A stretch of 63,829 bases of DNA, filler included, from Atractiella rhizophila (lineage: Eukaryota), in the NCBI GenBank assembly GCA_021432655.1. It is 4 parts of 4 records of this genome, joined end to end, with 100 filler letters (N's around TTAATTAATTAA, not from the genome) between each part and the next. Parts side by side here need not be neighbours in the genome. Positions count along the whole stretch, not along the records: positions 43,299 to 61,939 come from MU271811.1; 3 more parts are not named here. The stretch is one strand, 5' to 3'. Position 1 is the first letter of the stretch. The number at the start of each line of letters is the position of its first letter. The translations under genes were made by a program, and so were the position numbers. The notes under the pieces are model-generated. The model worked only from the letters and a program-made list of their open reading frames with translations. It was not told the origin of the DNA and ran no database searches. Positions 231 to 58,261 of this stretch are shown here, in pieces.

Positions 231-2923
231 TCATGCGTGGAAAGTATTTTGTTTTGCGGCGTCCTTACCTATCTTGCGCGCCAGCTGCCTTTTTAGCACA
301 TCGGTCTTCTCTTGTCCTAACCAGTCTACGACCCATCTCCACATCGCCCAAATCTCAACCTTTCCAGCCTTCCCACTATTTTGCCACGCAGAAAGCGCCT
401 GCACCATGGTCGTTGTCTGGACGTCGAGCTCAACCGCTCGCATCCAAGTCAACAGTAGGGGTATGTTGTCTTCCGATCTTGTGACCCTGAAGAGACGGAT
501 AACAGATCGGAAAACCATGTTGTTGAACGTGATGTGAGGGTATTCGGAAGGATGAGCTGAGGAGAGACTCGGGAGAGGACGAGCGACTCCTTCTGCTGTC
601 CACACATTTCTAGGGATACCATCCGCCCGTTCCTTTTTAACGTATTCGGTGATGAGGAAATCCAAAGGTTTCTTGGACGTGGGCAGGATGATGGTTTGCA
701 CGAGATGGGGGTAATTGAGGTATAGAGCACGCCAAAAGATGTCGGCAACGAACTGGGTTGGATGAGCAAACTCCTGGGCTGCCTGGCGAGGCTCGCTATT
801 CCGCTTGTGGGTTGCGATGCTATCAGGTAACGAGCCGTCAAAACCCGAAATGAATCGATTGGAAGACGGAGAGGCGTTAATTGAGGCATGCAGGAGATGC
901 ACGAAACTGACATGGTTCGGGATCACTCCCCAAGTTCGCTCCATAGTTGACCAGAGGCGATAAGCATTGTTCCAGTCATGTCGATAACCCCACATCAGGT
1001 TGTTCACTACGTTATGTGTGATCTTTATCGACTTGTAACATCTCACAGTGAGGAGATTGAGCAGTTTATTCCCTCCAAAACTGGAATCGAAATCGCCCAG
1101 AGTCTGAATCGCGAGTCCTTCGACAGGAGGGAGAGGAATGGGTTCTTCTTCATCCACATCATTAGATTCAGAGGCAACAGGCTGGGCGAGCGTCTCGACG
1201 AATTCGTTGGCCAATTCCGTCTTCCCAACTTGGTTGTACATGATGACCAAGGTAGTAAGCATGTTGGCGTCGATTTTAAAGCTCGGGTCCTTCTCGAGAA
1301 TATCGATCAGAAAACCTTCAACTAGGTTCTGTCTATTCTCACTTGAACCCGGTGCCTTCACTCGCAATCCCGTTAGTCCATTTTGAACAATATTCCGATC
1401 TCCAGACTCCGTAAACCCAAGAGTATCTGCATTCGCTCCTCCGGCTTCCCTCATCGCCTGATACTTGCCCTTCAACTCCCTAAAAATCCGTATAAACGAC
1501 TTATAATCGTACGATTGTTTCGTCGCCAAATCAACCCTCACTCTCCAAGCCCAGCCCAAGGTTCTCGTCTCTAACACATCTTCGCCACTGATTTCGAGCT
1601 TCGGCCATGATACCTTCAGGTTTTCTGGAATATCGAAGCGACCTTTGGCGTGAAGAAACGATTCTAAGAAGTCAAAGTAGCGCTCTCCGTCATCCGGGTC
1701 GTGGTAAAATGAAGCGAGGTACCAGACGTGATCGCGAGTCACCGTCCGCCCTTCATCGATCCAAATGTTCACAGGATCTTCGCCCGCTTCTTCTAGGGCA
1801 AGAACCTCTTGTAGGTCACCGACCAAGCGACCAGGCAGGAGCCTGAGACATTTAGCGCTCTCTGCGGTTTTCCCTTCCTTGGAATAAACCACCAAAGAAC
1901 TCCTAACTATGTGTTCTGTTGCGGCTATACCTCGTCGTTCCATCTCCTCCAGCAGCATCTTCATAACATTTGAGTTCGATTGACGGTATTGGAAGAGGAT
2001 TCGGAATGTTAGAGAGTCAGGGGAGCAGTTAGACCGATCCATCGCCTCGAAATACAGGGGGAGCATCTCGAGCCAAGCATCCAATGGAAGGTTAGAGTTT
2101 TGAGCCGCGACAAGGACCCTATGATACTGTCCGCTCTTTCGTCGCATGTCTGGAGGAGTAAAGAAAAGATAGTATCGCATGATCTCTCGCACTCCGTGCC
2201 AGTGCCCAACATTGGCCAAACTCTTGATAGTGCTGATGAGGAATTCGAACCGATTAACCGGAGACATTTGCAACCAAACAGGAGAGGCGAGAACTCCAAT
2301 TGCCAATGTTCCTTCGTATCGAGTGCGGAGTTTGTGGGGGATTATTCGAAGGAGGTTGTCAGGCAGAGGAATAGGCGATTCGTCCGCAATGGTGGGGTGG
2401 TAGGAGAATGGGTCGTCCGGTTTAGATTCGAAAGTCTCCCATCTTTCGACGAGCTGTAGCGCATCCAGTGTGCCTAAGAAATCTGGTGCTTCGGCAGCAT
2501 CTACCCATGCTTGGAGCGTCTCGTTTCGCTCAGGTTGAGAGACGGGAAGTAGGGAGGAGAAGAGAACTGTGCTTGGAGGTATGTTGTGCTGTTTGAGATG
2601 GTATGCTAGCCGACCTTCCAGGGAGTTTGGTGGTATATTGGCTAAAGAGTATGAAGTGCTTCTTGGGATATTGGCATGACGCTTCTGCGGGAGAGTGGAA
2701 GGAGATGGACGTCGTTGACCGGGTTGAAGTCCTTTTTGGCGTTTTTTCGCATTTTCAACTCGTTCTTTGAACCTTTGTCAGTCATTAGCTCCAATTAAAC
2801 AATACACGTACGTCTTAGACTGAATATTCGCTTAGAAGCTAGGAACGACGAACTATGGACGGTTCTGACAGAATTCTGGACAAACAGTAGAGGCGGCGTG
2901 GAGAGAAGGAAAGGGATGCGCAT
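231..2923 (-). CDS. Pentatricopeptide-repeat (PPR) protein, probably mitochondrial
   Basis: 691-aa ORF with PPR-like segments (PDSLTFRILF, IDANMLTTLVIMY, GVIPNHVSFVHLLHA). The frame stays open upstream to ~2764. An ATG at 2923 (MRIPFLLS..., R/S-rich presequence-like) joins it via a 47-nt GTACGT..AAG intron at 2811-2765. Confidence 0.7.
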
Positions 2924-3181
2924 TATGTGGCATTTTGGCTCTATATAAAGTCATCAGATTTACAAAATGGATGCTATGAAGGACTCACCGTAGTCTCAGC
3001 ACTCAGAAGTCATCTCCAGTTTGTGCTACGTTTTGCTGTCCAAAATTTCTCGTGACTGTTTATTTCATCATCATCCTCATCAACAATCGTCAACCGTGCA
3101 CATGCAACCCGACGCCACAAAGAACCACCAACATCCTTCACATCCTTGTGAAACCCCAAAAAGTAGCGCTAAACCGTTAAT

Positions 3182-4447
3182 ATGGCACCTAAGAACACCC
3201 TTTTTGTCGCTGGGTAACTCTTTTACTCCTTTTCAACACAACACACAATATTGACCATCTTCGCTTGAAGATTTGGCACTTCAATACGTGCGAAGGACCT
3301 CGCTTATGAGTTTGAGCGGTATATATTTAAGTTCCCTCTTGAACTCCGCTGAGCAAGCATTCTGCAGATTTGGAAGGTTGATAAGATGCGACATCCCCGC
3401 TGCTAGGACCTCGTCCGCGAAACCGTGAGTGCCTCCTCATTTTTCCTACTTTTTCTTTGGGAATGTGGTCAGAGTGACGAGAGACGGGGTAAAATGAATC
3501 TGAGAGGGAAGTGTTATGGTTCAGAGCCATCGAGCCTCGGAATTGCCTCTCTTTCATGTTTATGACGCTCGAACCCCAAAACAGTTTACTCGAGAACCCT
3601 CGAACGTTTCGTATCCTGACCTAGCCTGACGGACGAGCGAGGTCCCTTCTGCGCTCGAGCGTTGACGACCAGATTATTCTACGCTCTCTTTCCTACGAGC
3701 GAACTAGTTGCGAGCGAGTCGACTCGTCTGATCTCAATATTTGCTCGAAAACCTACCTTTTGCGACTAGAGCGAACGAACGAGTTTCCCCGTTCCTGCCT
3801 TCCTTCCTTCGTAACCTGACGAGCGAACAATTACCTTCGTTTCTTCGAATCGCCTCGGTTTCGACAGTACAGTGACGATGGTAATAACGAGTTGATCACA
3901 ATAGGTATGCATTCGTGGAATTTGAAGACGACAGAGATGCGGAAGATGCATACTATGAAATGCATGGGAGGAGACTCGGTGGCCACACGCTGAATGTGCA
4001 GGTTTGTCCTTCTCCCCCTTTCGAGACAAATAAGTTTCTGAAATCTGCTCTATAGTGGGCTAAGAACGCTCCTTCCTCCTCCTGGAGATATGAGAGACGC
4101 TCTCCCTCTCCCGGGAGGTCTAGGAGGAGGTCAAGGAGTCCTCCCAGGAGGAGAAGGTCTCCTAGGTCTGTCTTTCCTGTCGCATCCTTATCGCCACCGA
4201 ATGATAAAACGTGAACAGTCCAAGATATTCCAGAAGTAGGCGGGACGACAGTCCTCCTCGTAGATCGGACAGAGACAGAGATTATGATGACAGGGACGGA
4301 GGAAGGGATGGAGGAAGGGATAGGGGTGACAGGGATAGGGAGAGAGGAAGGGACAGAAGCGTCAGCCCGAGGGGTGCGAAAGAGGATGTGGACGGAGATA
4401 AGGAGCGAGACAGGGAGAGGGAAGAGGAGAGGCCGAGGGATGATTAA
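3182..4447 (+). CDS. srp1: SR-family splicing factor (single RRM + RS/RD tail), Srp1-like
   Basis: Spliced exons read [11 protein letters not shown] / [16 protein letters not shown] / [19 protein letters not shown] / [32 protein letters not shown] / [12 protein letters not shown], followed by RS- and RD-rich repeats. Confidence 0.85.
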
Positions 4448-45446: not shown

Positions 45447-49781
<4,335 letters not shown>

Positions 49782-49978
49782 TGTGGTCATCCAACCTGTC
49801 ACTACAGAACTTCTACCCGAACTTCTACCAGGACCAGGAATCCCCTGCAAATTTCGACCAACGACAAACTGCTCTCCTTCGGCCACATCCCTCCCTCATT
49901 TATCCACATACACGCCTGAAACTGTCGGCATAATTTCTGGCATAATTTGATACTGCTCTTCAGCTTTGGTTGAGTGGT

Positions 49979-50932
49979 ATGCCTCGCTTTCAAAACTTTC
50001 AGGTGCGTTTCTCACTTGCTTCTAAGCGACACAAGCGACACTCACACCGGGTACTAGCGCGATTACAAGCACCTTGTACTTCCTGCACGAAAGTCTATTG
50101 CCTTTTTCCCATGGTTCCCCCAATACGGTGGAGGATGGAAGCAGTTACGGGAAGTACCTCTGAAGGACCGTATCCCTCACTGGAACATTGTCCCCGGCGA
50201 TCGTGTGCGCGTAGTACGCGGGCCACCAGGCATGCAGTTCTGTGATGGGAGAGTAAAACGTGTCCTTCGACGTTTCAATGTCGTGTTTCTAGCAGGACGG
50301 CCATTCCAAGTAAGTTCTTCTCACAAAGCCAGCAAACAATTGCAGACCTCTGTGTACAGAAAAAAACGGTCCACAAATTCCGTTCCGCAGACCTTGCGCA
50401 TCATTTTAAACGTCCACCCATCTCTTATGACGACATTCCAATACATTACAGTACGGTCAGACTAATCAAAGAGGGATCGGATGGCAAAGTGTGAGATCTG
50501 GCTATGAACCGCCGCACGCATGCTGAAGTCAGCTCTAGTAAAGTTGCTTCTCGCGTCAAGAGAGGTCCTGTTTCCCGTCACCCCAATGGAATGTTGTTTT
50601 GGAAACGATGGGGTCTCTTTAATGGGGTTTGGGAGGAAATCCCGGTACAAACGGCCCCCGTCAAAGTGAAAGTAAAGCAGGAAGCACCAGACGGGTTAGG
50701 TGAGCACTTCTACGCTCCAGTCCGCCGCCCTCCTTCTGACCACGCAAATCCAGCCTTCAGCCTGACAGATTGGGAGGAAGCATCGAAAGTTACATATCAA
50801 CCGACGTTGACCCCGAAGGCGGAGATCTTGCTGGGAGGTCTTCAGGCGGCCAAGCGAAAGAACAATGACTTGCCATCTGAGATGATCTTGAACACATTAG
50901 AGTTACGGAGAAACTTGAGGCGCAATAAATCT
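49979..50932 (+). CDS. Mitochondrial ribosomal protein uL24m (MRPL40)-like KOW domain, probably the N-terminal part of a fusion with the PPR ORF
   Basis: Spliced reading MPRFQNFQ/RDYKHL..VPLKDRIPHWNIVPGDRVRVVRG..GRVKRVLRRFNVVFL..IPIHYS. Confidence 0.7.
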
Positions 50933-50977
50933 GTAGGCCTCTAATCTATGTACTGGTAACCAATAGGTATTCAGTAG

Positions 50978-53434
50978 GATTTTGGAAAGCCACGGCCAAG
51001 TTCTTCCAGTATCCTCAGCGGGAGTACCCGGCAAGGTCAAAAACGCATGTTGTCGAACACTGCCCATGCTAGGGTGCATCCCAATGCCCAGGACCCCCAC
51101 TCTCCCCTCTTACCTCAAAATGGCACCAAATGGGATGCACCTGCTTTAGACAGTCGCTTAGATGTTTCTTCCATGCCTTCGATCGGGGAAGGTTTTGACG
51201 AGCTCGACTTTCCTAACGATAGCACCACCAAGTCAACCCCTTCACCGTTGCTCCCTTCGGATGTTAAGGACGAAAGTCCGCTGTCTGTCATGAACCAACT
51301 TTGGGAACCTCCTCTTCCACCTGCTCAAAGAGACGAGCATAACAAGGCGATGCAATCCATTCTTCTCGGCCTTCGCCAGCGACAGCCTAACCGTCTCCTT
51401 CTTGATGGGTGGAAAGTTTTGGACCGTCTAGGAACAACCGAAAGAATAAAAAGAGATGAAGATGTGGTGCAGATGGTTCACATTATTACTAGTGAAAAAC
51501 TTGACTTCCTCTACGGCAATTGGGACTTAGCTAAGAGATTTCTGTTATGGGCGTTGGAGCGATGCGGTGTTCGGGTCATTGAGATCGCATGTTGGCAACT
51601 CCTTCGACAGCTCGAAACTAAGAGGTGCATCGAGATCTGGGAAACGGCCAGTCCGCACCTTTCCAGTGTCGAAATCAACAACAAGAGCAGTCTCTCCATC
51701 GGAAACTCATTTTTGGCGAGTGTTTTAGCACACGCTTTGGCAAAGGATCGCAAATCGTTCAAGGAAACGCTTCCCCGTCTCGTGCAAAGTTGGCCAGACC
51801 TTCCATACTTGCATATTCGCTCCCTGCCTCGCCAGAAAGTAGACTCCTTTTTTCGAGATGTACCAGAAATTAAAGATGACGCCGACCGATGTCTCCAATG
51901 GGCAAAGCAAGCCATATTTGTCATCAAGCTCAAAAACGCGGAAGACCCAGACGAATATGTTCGCAGCTCCGCAGACAGTTGGACTAAGAGGAATGTGCCA
52001 AGAGATCTGGAGGATCTTTGGGAAGACTACCGCGCGGCGCTAAACGAGGGCGAAACTCAATGGATCGAGTCCTTCAAGGCGGTCGATGATTCAGAGGCGG
52101 TCGACGACTTCGCGCGTCAACTGTGGGGCAGCAGTTCCAGACCCGTGGAAGGGAACCGTCAATTGATTCCTAATGCCACCATTAATCCTGCTGTCCTTCA
52201 GGCTTTCCTGATGTGTTTCACCCAGCATAAACTCGACACCCATGCTGCGGAAGTTTGGTCGCTGATAAAGTCTTTCGGTTTTCATCGATTCCGCTCCAGC
52301 TGGTATTCTGTTCTGTGGATCAATATGAAGACTCGCAACCTGAGGAATCTCAAGATCGCAATGGTGGATATGAACCAACTGGGACTCAAGCCCGACGCAT
52401 TCTGCTATGCGTTGTTGACTAAATGCCTTATGCAAGAGGCGAGAGGATCTCATGAGCTCGATTCAGACAGTCGGAGACAAATTGAACTTCAGGCCCAGAA
52501 ATATATGGATGGTATCTTCCAATCGTCAAAAATGCGAGAACTAGAACGGGACAACCGATTCCACCCAATAGTCTTCACCACTCTCCTAGAAGGATTTCTA
52601 CCCATGCGACGAGAGCAGGATGTCGAAAATCTCTTCACTCTCGCCAAGGAACTCTGCCGTGGATCACCAGTGGAGCTATACAACACTCTTCTTGAATTTC
52701 ATGGGCGAAATAAAAATCCTGCCATTGCCATGCAGACTATGTCGATGACGTTGAAACGAATGGTTGCTGCCAACGTCGAACCAAATGGTGGGACATTCGC
52801 CATCCTCATGAAATACGGTCCACGACACGCCATCCCTTCCATCATCGAAAACATGCGTAACATGGGGCTGCATGTTTCCATTGGCACTGTCATTCAAAAA
52901 TACATTGCCTCTCTGACACTGACTGGGAAGCTGGCGGACCTAGAGACTGCAGTTTATGTCATTTCGCAAGTTGAAAGTCGATTTTCTGATCGAGACGGCT
53001 CCATAATTTACACAACTTTGATGGACGGTTTTCTGAATGCACTGAAATTTGCGGCAGAATCGGAATATCACCATAAATGTCTAAACAGTGCTCTTCAATG
53101 CTTGGAACATATGATACACAAGAAATACCCTGTCACCACGACAACTTATAACATTCTGCTGTCCGAACTTTTGCAGGTTGGCACAGAAGAGACGGTTACT
53201 CGGGCGATGGAGGTTTACGAAGCTCTTCGCAAACGTCTCCAAGGGTCTGCTCGCTCTCCGAAACTGGAGCGTTCGTATTACTTTCTTCTGAGGACATTAT
53301 GGCGAATGGGCAAAACGGATGAGCTGCTGAAGGTACTGTCAGACATGCGTGCAGATGGGATCCTCCCCACAACTGAACGATTCAAGAGGCTTTTGGAGCG
53401 GATATATGGTGACAGCAGCCCTTTCAATTTCTAG
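50978..53434 (+). CDS. Large PPR protein (single exon), probably spliced to the upstream uL24m-like exons
   Basis: 795-aa ORF with PPR motifs (GLKPDAFCYALL, VELYNTLL, NVEPNGGTFAIL, TTTTYNILL, DMRADGILP); frame open back to the acceptor at 50977. Confidence 0.85.
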   Translation, partial: DFGKPRPSSSSILSGSTRQGQKRMLSNTAHARVHPNAQDPHSPLLPQNGTKWDAPALDSRLDVSSMPSIGEGFDELDFPNDSTTKSTPSPLLPSDVKDESPLSVMNQLWEPPLPPAQRDEHNKAMQSILLGLRQRQPNRLLLDGWKVLDRLGTTERIKRDEDVVQMVHIITSEKLDFLYGNWDLAKRFLLWALERCGVRVIEIACWQLLRQLETKRCIEIWETASPHLSSVEINNKSSLSIGNSFLASVLAHALAKDRKSFKETLPRLVQSWPDLPYLHIRSLPRQKVDSFFRDVPEIKDDADRCLQWAKQAIFVIKLKNAEDPDEYVRSSADSWTKRNVPRDLEDLWEDYRAALNEGETQWIESFKAVDDSEAVDDFARQLWGSSSRPVEGNRQLIPNATINPAVLQAFLMCFTQHKLDTHAAEVWSLIKSFGFHRFRSSWYSVLWINMKTRNLRNLKIAMVDMNQLGLKPDAFCYALLTKCLMQEARGSHELDSDSRRQIELQAQKYMDGIFQSSKMRELERDNRFHPIVFTTLLEGFLPMRREQDVENLFTLAKELCRGSPVELYNTLLEFHGRNKNPAIAMQTMSMTLKRMVAANVEPNGGTFAILMKYGPRHAIPSIIENMRNMGLHVSIGTVIQKYIASLTLTGKLADLETAVYVISQVESRFSDRDGSIIYTTLMDGFLNALKFAAESEYHHKCLNSALQCLEHMIHKKYPVTTTTYNILLSELLQVGTEETVTRAMEVYEALRKRLQGSARSPKLERSYYFLLRTLWRMGKTDELLKVLSDMRADGILPTTERFKRLLERIYGDSSPFNF

Positions 53435-56759: not shown

Positions 56760-58261
56760 TGTTGGATTAGCTATTAAATTTCATGGTGTTGCCTTTGTGT
56801 GGTCAGCCGCCCTTGCTGTGTTTACTCACTTCGTAGTTTTTCTCCCTAGGGGGCAGTCTTGGTGGTCATCATCTGTGACCACCAACTCCTGTCCCCTAGG
56901 TATGTGTTTCCTCATCAATCCAATCATCTTTGACCACCAACTTCTGTCCCCTAGCTCCATCCAGCGTCTATTCCTCTCATGGTAGCGAGAGCAGTGGCTA
57001 GGGATTGACGGATCAGTTTTGCCACCCACTTGGTTGAAAATTTTGACCACTCAGCCATCCTTTGTCCAATCGATTCAAGACTTTGGGATCATAATCGAGA
57101 CCCTCCTACGGCCCTATCCCCCCATTTCGACGAAGATCAGACGATCCAAACTCGAATTTTATCGCCATGTCTGAAGAAAGTAAAATTTTTGATCGCCCCC
57201 CTTGGAGAGAAGAACTATGGCACCTGGTCCATCGATATGCAAGCTGAATTAATGCGAAAGGGGCTATGGGAGATTGTGTGTGGAGAGGAGAAGAAGCCTG
57301 TTGATTTGAAGGAGGAAAATGGGAAAAGGAACGCTCTAAAGCAGCAGGATGCTGTTCCTCAGCCTGGAATCCACCCAGAAGGCTCATGTGGTGTCTGTCA
57401 TTCCAAGATCCAGTCAGATCTGGTCCACCCTTCCAAGAAATCCACCAGCCAGAAGAGGTCTTCCACGCGTTTTTCGTCCCTAAGCGCTCCTGCCTTGCTC
57501 TTCCAGGAAGCGAGAGATGATGGCTAGGATCACATTTGGTCACACCTATCACCTACCCCCTCCTCCAGACCACAATTTTCACCCTCCCACACTCAAATTT
57601 TGCTCAATTTCGATAATCAGAACAGATTTGAGACCCTCAAACGTTCCTTTACCACCTTAGAAGGTTTCTGTCTACTCAGGAACCAAGAAATCTATCACCT
57701 TACCACCCATCTCCTGCCTCAAAACGCACTTTGCCACCCTGATGACTCAAACTGATCTCAAATTCGATTAAACAAGCTTTTTTATCGGATTCAGGCCACC
57801 AGAACTTCAGAGGAAGCCATCTTCACAACACCCAAATGGCAAATCAGGCGTCCAGCAGCAACAGGGGACGTCCTGTAGGACGTGGGAGAGGTGCAAGGAA
57901 TGGTGGGGATCTGGGAGAAGGGATTGGTCACCTGTGGAGTGCTTCAACTGCCACAAAGAAGGGTCATATCGCTTCCAACTGCCCTGGAACATCTTCAGAA
58001 GGTCTCAAAAGCGAGTTGGAATGATATAAAGCGAAGTTTGGGAAGTTGGAAGATGTTAGGGAAGCCAGAGTCGAAGGGAAAGGGGGGAGAATTTGCTGGG
58101 GAGACCAGCTATGCAGCGGTAGACAATGCCATTAGTCGCCAGAGAGCTGGGACTGACTGGCTAATCGATACAGGAGCAACTTCATCAATGACTCCACACC
58201 CCCACTTCTTCAAATCCTATCGAAAACACATTGTCCCCATCAGAGTTGCGAATGGAGAGGT
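56760..58261 (+). mobile_element. Ty1/copia 5' part: LTR 56760-56979, PBS, decayed gag, zinc knuckle and protease
   Basis: TG..CA LTR, PBS TGGTAGCGAGAGC, NYGTWSIDMQAEL..GLW, CFNC..GHIASNC and WLIDTGATSSMT; frameshifted. Confidence 0.9.

Follow-up and report, generated by a model that had tools for sequence, protein, structure and literature searches.

Two neighbouring genes in nuclear DNA of the root-associated fungus Atractiella rhizophila, the upstream one encoding a uL24m-like mitoribosomal protein and the downstream one a PPR protein, were found to be joined in frame in RNA by splicing of an optional 57-nt intron, and this fusion joint is real. It lies in the window, i.e., the whole stretch of 63,829 nt of DNA that was analysed. 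The joined frame encodes 1063 aa and, by analogy with known composite precursors, one precursor may yield both uL24m and the PPR protein, a reading that we consider plausible, with a probability somewhat short of even. No description of a uL24m-PPR fusion was found in the literature searched, which was judged mostly by titles and the beginnings of abstracts.

The uL24m-like gene has five exons and extends from ATG 49979 to a TAA stop at 50942–50944, with ...RRNKS as the last residues before the optional donor GTAGGC. Its stop is separated from the PPR ATG at 51047 by 102 nt, in agreement with the approximately 100 bp given in the original prediction. Both genes are on the + strand, the two ORFs are in the same genomic frame, and the PPR frame upstream of ATG 51047 stays open back to 50978. 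The gene model of the original prediction did not include intron 4 and had to be revised, since this intron was spliced in all four RNA runs aligned; its removal is in frame, which gives 252 aa for uL24m and 1063 aa for the fusion. An estimate of gene spacing from long ORFs was dropped, as introns are too frequent in this genome for such an approach. The features of the locus are as follows.

49862..49978, + strand: 5′ leader of the uL24m-like mRNA; contigs start at 49862 (X1), 49867 (X20), 49873 (X19), and 49893 (X3)
49979..50002, + strand: uL24m-like exon 1, ATG 49979, 8 codons; joint 50002/50058 (listed as 50000 to 50056, cut shifted by +2) in 4/4 runs
50003..50057, + strand: intron 1, 55 nt, GTGCGT..TAG; removed in 4/4 runs
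50058..50309, + strand: uL24m-like exon 2 with the KOW-type core; phmmer match to uL24m of the plant mitoribosome
50310..50359, + strand: intron 2, 50 nt, GTAAGT..CAG; removed in 4/4 runs
50360..50490, + strand: uL24m-like exon 3; RNA contigs and translated gene model, also in the annotated model P0068
50491..50538, + strand: intron 3, 48 nt, GTGAGA..TAG; removed in 4/4 runs
50539..50699, + strand: uL24m-like exon 4; RNA contigs, translated gene model, and annotated P0068
50700..50753, + strand: intron 4, 54 nt, in frame, GTGAGC..CAG; joint listed as 50697 to 50752 (cut shifted by +2) in 4/4 runs
50754..50944, + strand: last uL24m-like exon in its short form, stop TAA 50942–50944; unspliced contigs cross the stop
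50924..50929, + strand: AATAAA hexamer close 5′ of the optional donor, the sole AATAAA within 50700–51100; candidate poly(A) signal
50933..50989, + strand: optional terminal intron, 57 nt, GTAGGC..AAG, which takes out the uL24m stop; joints in X19 and X3
50975..50977, + strand: TAG acceptor of the original prediction (45-nt intron); no joint to 50978 in four runs
50990..51046, + strand: 19 linker codons before the PPR ATG, in frame with both ORFs; open, no D/E, 4 K/R
51047..53434, + strand: PPR ORF, 795 aa, intronless, with PPR_2/PPR_3; identical to annotated P0001

RNA contigs were aligned from four of the 23 listed runs (X1, X3, X19, and X20). A joint from 50932 to 50990 with GT..AG ends was found in X19, with 181 letters on its shorter side and zero letters shared between the two sides, which argues against a template-switch artefact. 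The contig that carries this joint is 3196 nt long and leads from the uL24m leader across the joint into the PPR ORF, reaching at least 51600, with all four upstream uL24m introns removed. A contig from X3 starts at 50990 and has a 16-letter loose end identical to 50917–50932. Full bridging of the joint was seen in one of the four runs only (X19); X19 and X3, which share the joint, differ in their organism and study labels. The spliced frame is open across the joint for 1063 aa and the X19 contig is unbroken, yet a contig over two genes is not proof of a single molecule. Contig ends are likewise not proven transcription starts: RNAs with the joint could have their 5′ ends within the last uL24m exon, and the 16 letters of upstream exon in the X3 joint contig may reflect either low depth or a start near 50917.

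Both joint-bearing contigs use the donor at 50933 (RRNKS/GTAGGC) that had been predicted, and the predicted in-frame splice into the 795-aa PPR ORF was found in RNA. The acceptor is a different one. No joint to the TAG at 50977, which would give a 45-nt intron, was found in any of the four runs (rare use is possible, as contigs can drop rare variants), and the acceptor used in RNA is the AAG ending at 50989. Of the expected 50932/50978 junction, the donor half was recovered and the acceptor half was replaced by 50990; the frame is equal with either acceptor. Unspliced RNA through the uL24m stop was present in three of the four runs (X20 to 51007, X1 to 50971, and X3 to 50964), which makes the fusion optional and one of two forms. 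Coverage gaps in single runs (X1 past 50971; X20 from 51008 to 51344) were not counted as absence. In line with optional use, the splice sites of the 57-nt intron (donor GTAGGC, acceptor AAG) are weaker than those of the four introns that are removed constitutively. The locus shows the arrangement of a tandem-gene chimera, with neighbours on the same strand, splicing from an upstream exon to a point before the downstream ORF, and an upstream gene that is also expressed alone.

The similarity of the upstream gene product to uL24m, as originally predicted, was supported. Residues 38–81, encoded in exon 2, matched plant uL24m by phmmer (9evs_1V, E = 0.0015; 6xyw_Au, E = 0.0019), and the best ten ESM Atlas matches all belonged to uL24 families, the top one with 194 shared features and a score of 0.89, which, being below 0.9, counts as a lead only by the rule of the tool. 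An ESM Atlas model gave a TM of 0.47 to a uL24m-like cluster. The original prediction had staked this identity on a match to uL24m/KOW HMMs, and here the outcome was divided: the phmmer and ESM Atlas similarities spoke for it, and the Pfam KOW hit on exon 2 was below threshold (E = 0.67; 10.3 bits vs. a cut-off of 22.3). No Pfam/NCBIfam family reached threshold on the last uL24m exon, exon 3, or the 186-aa annotated model, the Pfam scans having covered single exons and this truncated model. Besides, a phmmer search of PDB with the truncated P0068 gave no match, and a single-sequence AlphaFold2 model of P0068 was discarded (pLDDT 37). The N-terminus of uL24m, with Asp at residue 10, resembles a presequence only moderately.

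The downstream gene was confirmed to encode a true PPR protein. Its ORF contains PPR_2 (1.3e-12; 48.1 bits, cut-off 30) and PPR_3 (2.4e-9; 37.6 bits, cut-off 25), both of which are present in 16/16 aligned family members, and the orthologue profile matched PPR10 and designer PPR structures in PDB (E down to 6e-116) and also the mitoribosomal PPR chains mL101-mL104 and mS39. The M-L-S opening of the ORF is common to the orthologues P0002, P0007, and P0012, and ATG 51047 looks like the ancestral start. As this ATG and the M-L-S start are retained, the PPR protein can probably be made alone. ATG 51047 has a C at −3, a poor start context. Judged from alignment offsets, the N-terminal regions of the orthologues are 70–155 residues longer than that of the 795-aa model.

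Residues 240–283 of the 1063-aa protein, which include the joint (249|250) as well as the PPR Met (269), form its longest acid-free stretch (44 aa, 10 K/R), and of the 31 windows of 30 residues without D/E and with a net charge of at least +4, 15 fall within it. This agrees with the original description of the linker as acid-poor and basic and makes it appear presequence-like by what is a crude composition test. The linker also holds predicted MPP-type motifs at the junction. The R-3 pattern has a single match in the whole protein, at R268, and the R-10 pattern has four matches, one of them at R268. The stretch R-M-L-S-N-T-A-H-A-R does fit the R-10 pattern as had been proposed, yet with four matches in the fused protein this pattern is not rare; the specificity of MPP motifs is low, and the definitions used were those of the original prediction together with further ones. 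In shuffles of 50945–51046, the chance of a matching frame (1/3) and a stop-free stretch of 57 nt (0.36) was approximately 0.12; a stretch both stop-free and acid-free was obtained at 0.073 irrespective of frame, and at approximately 0.024 when frame, absence of stops, and absence of D/E were combined.

Presence of the same fusion in related fungi, where the original prediction had proposed to look for it, was not supported in the relatives examined. The PPR orthologues in other Pucciniomycotina stand alone, and a uL24-like part was found in none of 79 fetched non-self proteins, including orthologues from Rhodotorula, Mixia, and Microbotryomycetes. In a metagenome relative (L001/L002), an unrelated 898-aa ORF precedes the PPR orthologue, and tblastn matches of the uL24m isoform on L001–L003 were rejected as spurious (E ≥ 0.53, in other frames inside this unrelated ORF). 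L003 has a GC content of 0.38 and a partial match, and may represent a different PPR paralogue. An exact 30-nt pattern from 50990–51019 gave no matches in JGI metagenome contigs. Word-index homologue searches returned the window's own proteins only; that they yielded neither uL24m orthologues nor fused forms carries little weight in view of the limits of the tool.

We tentatively propose that the two genes, adjacent in nuclear DNA and both coding for mitochondrial proteins, are at times transcribed as one unit. Some RNAs from the uL24m promoter would end soon after the stop and give the ordinary 252-aa uL24m. Others would read on and be spliced at 50933–50989, which would take out the 3′ end region together with the stop and the three codons before it, so that the uL24m frame would be joined to the PPR frame in a 1063-aa composite precursor consisting of uL24m, the basic, serine-rich, acid-free linker, and the PPR protein, which would keep its old presequence. 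If the analogy with Atp25, Arg5,6, and Rsm22-Cox11 holds, the linker may act as an internal presequence-like segment, and a cut by MPP at R268 (R-2/R-3), possibly followed by Oct1, would set uL24m and the PPR protein free in the matrix as two proteins. Joint-bearing RNAs would then be full length and translated, and their product imported and cleaved. The coexisting unspliced form, the retained PPR start, the lack of fusions among the 79 proteins, and the different upstream gene in L001/L002 argue against a fixed, ancient polyprotein.

The same RNA joint can be read in other ways. The 57-nt intron may be a leader intron of a separate, overlapping PPR gene that starts inside the last uL24m exon, so that the 795-aa protein would be made from ATG 51047, the shared frame would be due to chance, and no fused protein would exist. 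We regard this as doubtful, since an X19 contig assembled without a break would imply, with a 31-letter word graph, joint reads reaching at least approximately 30 nt 5′ of the donor, since the matching frame and the 19 stop-free, acid-free, basic, and serine-rich codons would be a coincidence at the approximately 0.024 obtained above, and since the context of ATG 51047 is poor. It would nevertheless suit the X3 joint contig with just 16 upstream letters, the spliced 50917–51047 sequence, which has no ATG and has lost a 3-codon upstream ORF at 50948 with the intron, the M-L-S start shared by three orthologues, and the stand-alone PPR genes of relatives; in X20 and X3 the PPR contig depth was also lower than the uL24m contig depth, contig depth being a poor measure. 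It is unlikely that the chimeric mRNA, though real, is a by-product of read-through, with PPR made mainly from its own transcript and a rare fused protein without a role. In Agaricomycetes, read-through and polycistronic RNAs are described as widespread for tandem genes that also have transcripts of their own (PMC4503453), unspliced RNA in X20 passes the acceptor, the splice sites are weak, and the fusion was not conserved in the relatives examined. Noise would not be expected to yield a common frame and a presequence-like linker, to recur in a second run labelled with another organism and study, or to leave a spliced path that was kept by the assembler at a mean depth of 224.5 (X19).

Two further readings concern the protein made. 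A PPR transcript from the last uL24m exon could be translated from the in-frame ATG 50882 into an 832-aa precursor, the last 17 uL24m codons doubling as a PPR presequence. The ATG is a codon in both frames, the sequence encoded between it and Met 269, across the joint, is basic and contains one Glu, and the N-terminal regions of the orthologues are longer than that of the 795-aa model; the reading would require a promoter inside the uL24m gene, and a 6-codon upstream ORF at 50865 precedes the ATG, and we consider it quite improbable. Still less credence is given to an uncut fusion, which would leave some mitoribosomes with a uL24m that bears a PPR extension of 800 aa where the polypeptide tunnel ends: the linker resembles a presequence of the cleavable kind, MPP motifs included, the PPR orthologues occur as separate proteins, and the characterised composite precursors, as far as they are described in PMC8734313 and PMC5063612, are all cut. 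An in-frame fused RNA does exist, however, the mitoribosomes of plants and mammals contain PPR proteins as integral subunits (mL101-mL104 and mS39 in PDB), and yeast uL24m is placed by PMC12242767 at the tunnel exit, where protein-biogenesis factors and, in the repressed state, COB translational activators dock.

The proposed composite precursor can be compared with several known systems. MPP is reported to cut composite precursors at internal presequence-like linkers (PMC8734313, PMC5063612), and those named in PMC8734313 are Atp25, Arg5,6, Etp1, Rsm22-Cox11, SPAC22A12.08c, and rice RPS14, the last as an MPP-processed polyprotein. Atp25 of Saccharomyces cerevisiae (Rsf and M domain) similarly joins a mitoribosome-binding protein to a domain that stabilises a mitochondrial mRNA, through a presequence-like linker with MPP sites, and each half is import-competent with its own signal according to PMC5063612. 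However, Atp25 is a fixed single ORF with experimentally shown MPP cleavage, whereas here an optional intron connects uL24m and PPR and the cleavage is predicted. Rsm22-Cox11 of Schizosaccharomyces pombe and Arg5,6 are tandem mitochondrial proteins with a presequence-like segment and an MPP motif at the junction (PMC8734313), and Rsm22 is given as a mitoribosome assembly factor in PMC12375894. They differ in being constitutive gene fusions, Arg5,6 being conserved across fungi, whereas none of the relatives examined was seen to have the uL24m-PPR junction. In the grass sdh2/rps14 genes, the joining of a mitoribosomal protein to the targeting part of another mitochondrial protein depends on alternative splicing (as described in PMC1543663), but rps14 sits in an sdh2 intron and borrows a presequence, whereas here two complete neighbours are joined end to end with the ribosomal protein upstream. 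Transcription-induced chimeras and fungal polycistrons share with this locus same-strand read-through and a splice that skips the terminator, and both of their genes are also expressed alone (PMC4503453), as uL24m is here and the PPR gene may be. As far as that source describes them, the Agaricomycete polycistrons retain the coding potential of their loci without ORF fusion, in contrast to the removed stop and single open frame found here; its units are mainly from Agaricomycetes, and A. rhizophila belongs to Pucciniomycotina.

If correct, the proposed reading adds to the few composite mitochondrial precursors known a new pairing, of a core mitoribosomal protein with a PPR RNA-binding protein, the two being joined only upon splicing of an optional intron. 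It would be a fungal case in which the synthesis of two mitochondrial proteins as a single chain depends on splicing rather than on gene structure, and the locus could serve as a simple system in which to test internal MPP cleavage and the coupled supply of a ribosomal protein and an mRNA-specific factor. We also give a very slim chance to the optional intron being a dosing switch, in which the balance between 3′ end formation and splicing would set the share of uL24m covalently paired with an mRNA-specific PPR protein. The pair would then be cut beside the assembling large subunit or stay uncut on a subset of ribosomes, and an RNA-binding factor at the tunnel exit, the docking place of translational activators and assembly factors in yeast, would couple ribosome biogenesis in a hard-wired manner to the translation of specific messages in mitochondria. 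The public annotation of the locus is also corrected by these results: the uL24m model P0068 is truncated at 186 aa and lacks intron 4, and the fusion form, absent from the public gene set, was observed in RNA.

The comparison with RNA covered Logan contigs from four of the 23 runs listed (X19, X20, X1, and X3). These runs were shown to be RNA, because the four internal introns of the upstream, uL24m-like gene were removed in every one of them. From the sequence and the contigs together, this gene was found to consist of five exons encoding a 252-aa product:

Exons of the uL24m-like gene
49979–50002, exon 1
50058–50309, exon 2
50360–50490, exon 3
50539–50699, exon 4
50754–50944, exon 5 in its short form, with the stop codon TAA at 50942–50944

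The internal introns measure 55, 50, 48, and 54 nt. The original prediction did not include the fourth (50700–50753), which was spliced in 4/4 runs; it is in frame and stop-free, so its retention would add 18 residues and keep the frame intact. The public model P0068 (186 aa) has its start at a Met inside exon 2, with the first 66 residues missing. The contigs support two more 5′ coding segments (49979–50309), and the resulting 252-aa protein contains the beginning of the KOW-type core. At positions 49920 (A>C, leader) and 50108 (synonymous C>T, codon 25) the window differs from all four runs, which indicates either that the assembly represents another strain or allele than the runs or that it contains two base errors.

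The window is fungal nuclear DNA, and the sole database protein matching the upstream gene was a hypothetical protein from Atractiella rhizophila (Pucciniomycotina, Atractiellomycetes). The upstream protein is strongly divergent. Scans of the single exons and P0068 against Pfam and NCBIfam gave no match at threshold (KOW, E 0.67), and a single-sequence AlphaFold2 model was unusable (pLDDT 37). The predicted uL24m-like identity nevertheless drew support from the alignment of exon 2 with a plant mitoribosome uL24m across the KOW-type core (E 0.0015) and from the ESM Atlas, in which the best ten feature matches were all uL24 families (top, Ribosomal_uL24m-like, 0.89 with 194 shared features), with uL24m-like and bacterial uL24 clusters as the structure matches. 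Both results are indicative of a bacterial-type L24; for a fungal protein, this means uL24m.

The downstream ORF of 795 aa (ATG at 51047, end at 53434) is identical to the annotated protein P0001 and encodes a genuine P-type PPR protein. HMMER detected 66 relatives among 1.84 billion representatives, the best with 25% identity; those with names were from Rhodotorula species, Mixia osmundae, and one Microbotryomycete. The ORF is intronless over 2.4 kb, next to a gene with four introns within 0.97 kb, and its orthologue at the metagenome locus L001 is likewise one open frame (930 aa). The predicted spacing of about 100 bp agreed with the 102 nt measured between the uL24m stop and the PPR ATG. 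The PPR frame stays stop-free upstream as far as 50978, and both genes are read in one genomic frame.

In X19, a single contig of 3196 nt (mean depth 224.5) runs from the uL24m leader (49873) through all four spliced introns, joins 50932 to 50990 and extends into the PPR ORF up to 51600, the limit of the region compared. The joint skips 57 nt with GT..AG ends and zero shared letters. The same joint was found in X3, in a contig from 50990 preceded by 16 loose letters corresponding to 50917–50932, which falls short of the 31-letter bridging rule. Besides, contigs of X20 (to 51007), X1 (to 50971), and X3 (to 50964) are unspliced here and extend past both the donor and the stop codon. Thus, both forms exist. 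The donor proposed originally (50933) was borne out, but the splice joins 50990 rather than 50978, since the acceptor lies at 50989, 12 nt beyond the proposed 50977. The spliced frame is open for 1063 aa, and this in-frame splice is very probably real; the RNA data thereby partly confirmed and sharpened the observation. Of the five introns, the optional one is bounded by the weakest splice signals (donor GTAGGC, acceptor AAG, three AGs bypassed), and an AATAAA hexamer lies immediately 5′ of its donor (50924–50929), which together suggest that 3′ end formation and splicing may compete at the end of uL24m.

A frame match (1/3) combined with 57 stop-free nucleotides (0.36, from shuffles) has a chance of about 0.12, or about 0.024 when absence of Asp and Glu is also required. 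Residues 240–283 form the longest acid-free stretch of the fused protein (44 aa, 10 K/R), a region that takes in the joint at 249|250 as well as Met 269, where the PPR protein begins. The predicted acid-poor linker with an R-10 motif was thereby recovered; one of the four R-10 matches in the fused protein lies at R268, as does the single R-3 match. MPP cuts Atp25 and Arg5,6 at internal presequence-like linkers (PMC5063612, PMC8734313), which the present linker resembles in make-up by a crude composition test.

By definition, the uL24m-PPR transcript qualifies as a transcription-induced chimera, and its use of alternative splicing resembles that reported for grass sdh2/rps14 (PMC1543663). A full-length fusion mRNA made optionally, with a 1063-aa product predicted to be imported and cut at the linker, is a tentative reading that we hold at somewhat below even chances. 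Such a precursor would act as Atp25 and Rsm22-Cox11 do; Atp25 is described as a mitoribosome-binding protein and an mRNA-stabilising domain separated by MPP (PMC5063612). Membership in this class of MPP-cut composite precursors is not established, the linker showing the expected features by crude tests only. In yeast, uL24m serves as a marker of the tunnel exit, a site occupied by assembly factors and by COB activators in their repressed state (PMC12242767); this makes the pairing with a PPR factor suggestive without counting as evidence for a functional link in the present fungus. The literature searched, judged largely from titles and the starts of abstracts, contained no report of a uL24m-PPR fusion.

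The polyprotein interpretation was partly supported: the in-frame splice and the linker, presequence-like by the crude test, speak for it, whereas the relatives and the retained PPR start speak against a dedicated polyprotein. The original prediction had proposed seeking the same fusion in related fungi, and no conservation was found in those examined: a uL24-like part occurred in 0/79 non-self proteins, and in a metagenome relative (two near-identical loci, L001 and L002) the PPR orthologue is preceded by an unrelated 898-aa ORF, so that the junction is a lineage-specific novelty at most. The PPR protein starts with M-L-S as in the orthologues P0002, P0007, and P0012; the N-termini of the orthologues are themselves presequence-like. 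This start would also fit a separate, overlapping PPR transcript translated from ATG 51047, with the 57-nt intron as its leader intron, a reading to which we give a minor but appreciable weight. The contigs are uninformative on 5′ ends: all that the unbroken X19 contig establishes is that joint-bearing reads extend at least some 30 nt past the donor on its 5′ side, and the X3 contig reaches 16 nt. The joint may accordingly derive from a PPR-specific transcript starting within the last uL24m exon. A functionless chimera produced by read-through between closely spaced tandem genes, a process documented in Agaricomycetes (PMC4503453), is unlikely. Translation of a PPR-specific transcript from the in-frame ATG 50882, which would lengthen the presequence of the PPR precursor, seems quite improbable, and a fusion that is made and remains uncut on the ribosome slightly more so.

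In L001, the 898-aa ORF (1610–4306) is rich in proline, serine, and arginine, is not uL24m-related and stops about 270 nt ahead of the likely PPR start. In the window, a divergently transcribed gene (46638–49895, minus strand), whose start is some 190 nt 5′ of the uL24m ATG, has a 505-aa open N-terminal segment followed by a Helicase_C domain (E 9e-13); a conserved motif near the end of this segment presumably resembles those of PRP16/DHX38-type splicing helicases. Downstream of the PPR gene, the ORF at 57009–57524 contains DUF4219 (E 6e-7). Gag-Pol proteins of copia-type retrotransposons typically carry this domain, so a remnant of a mobile element may be present here.
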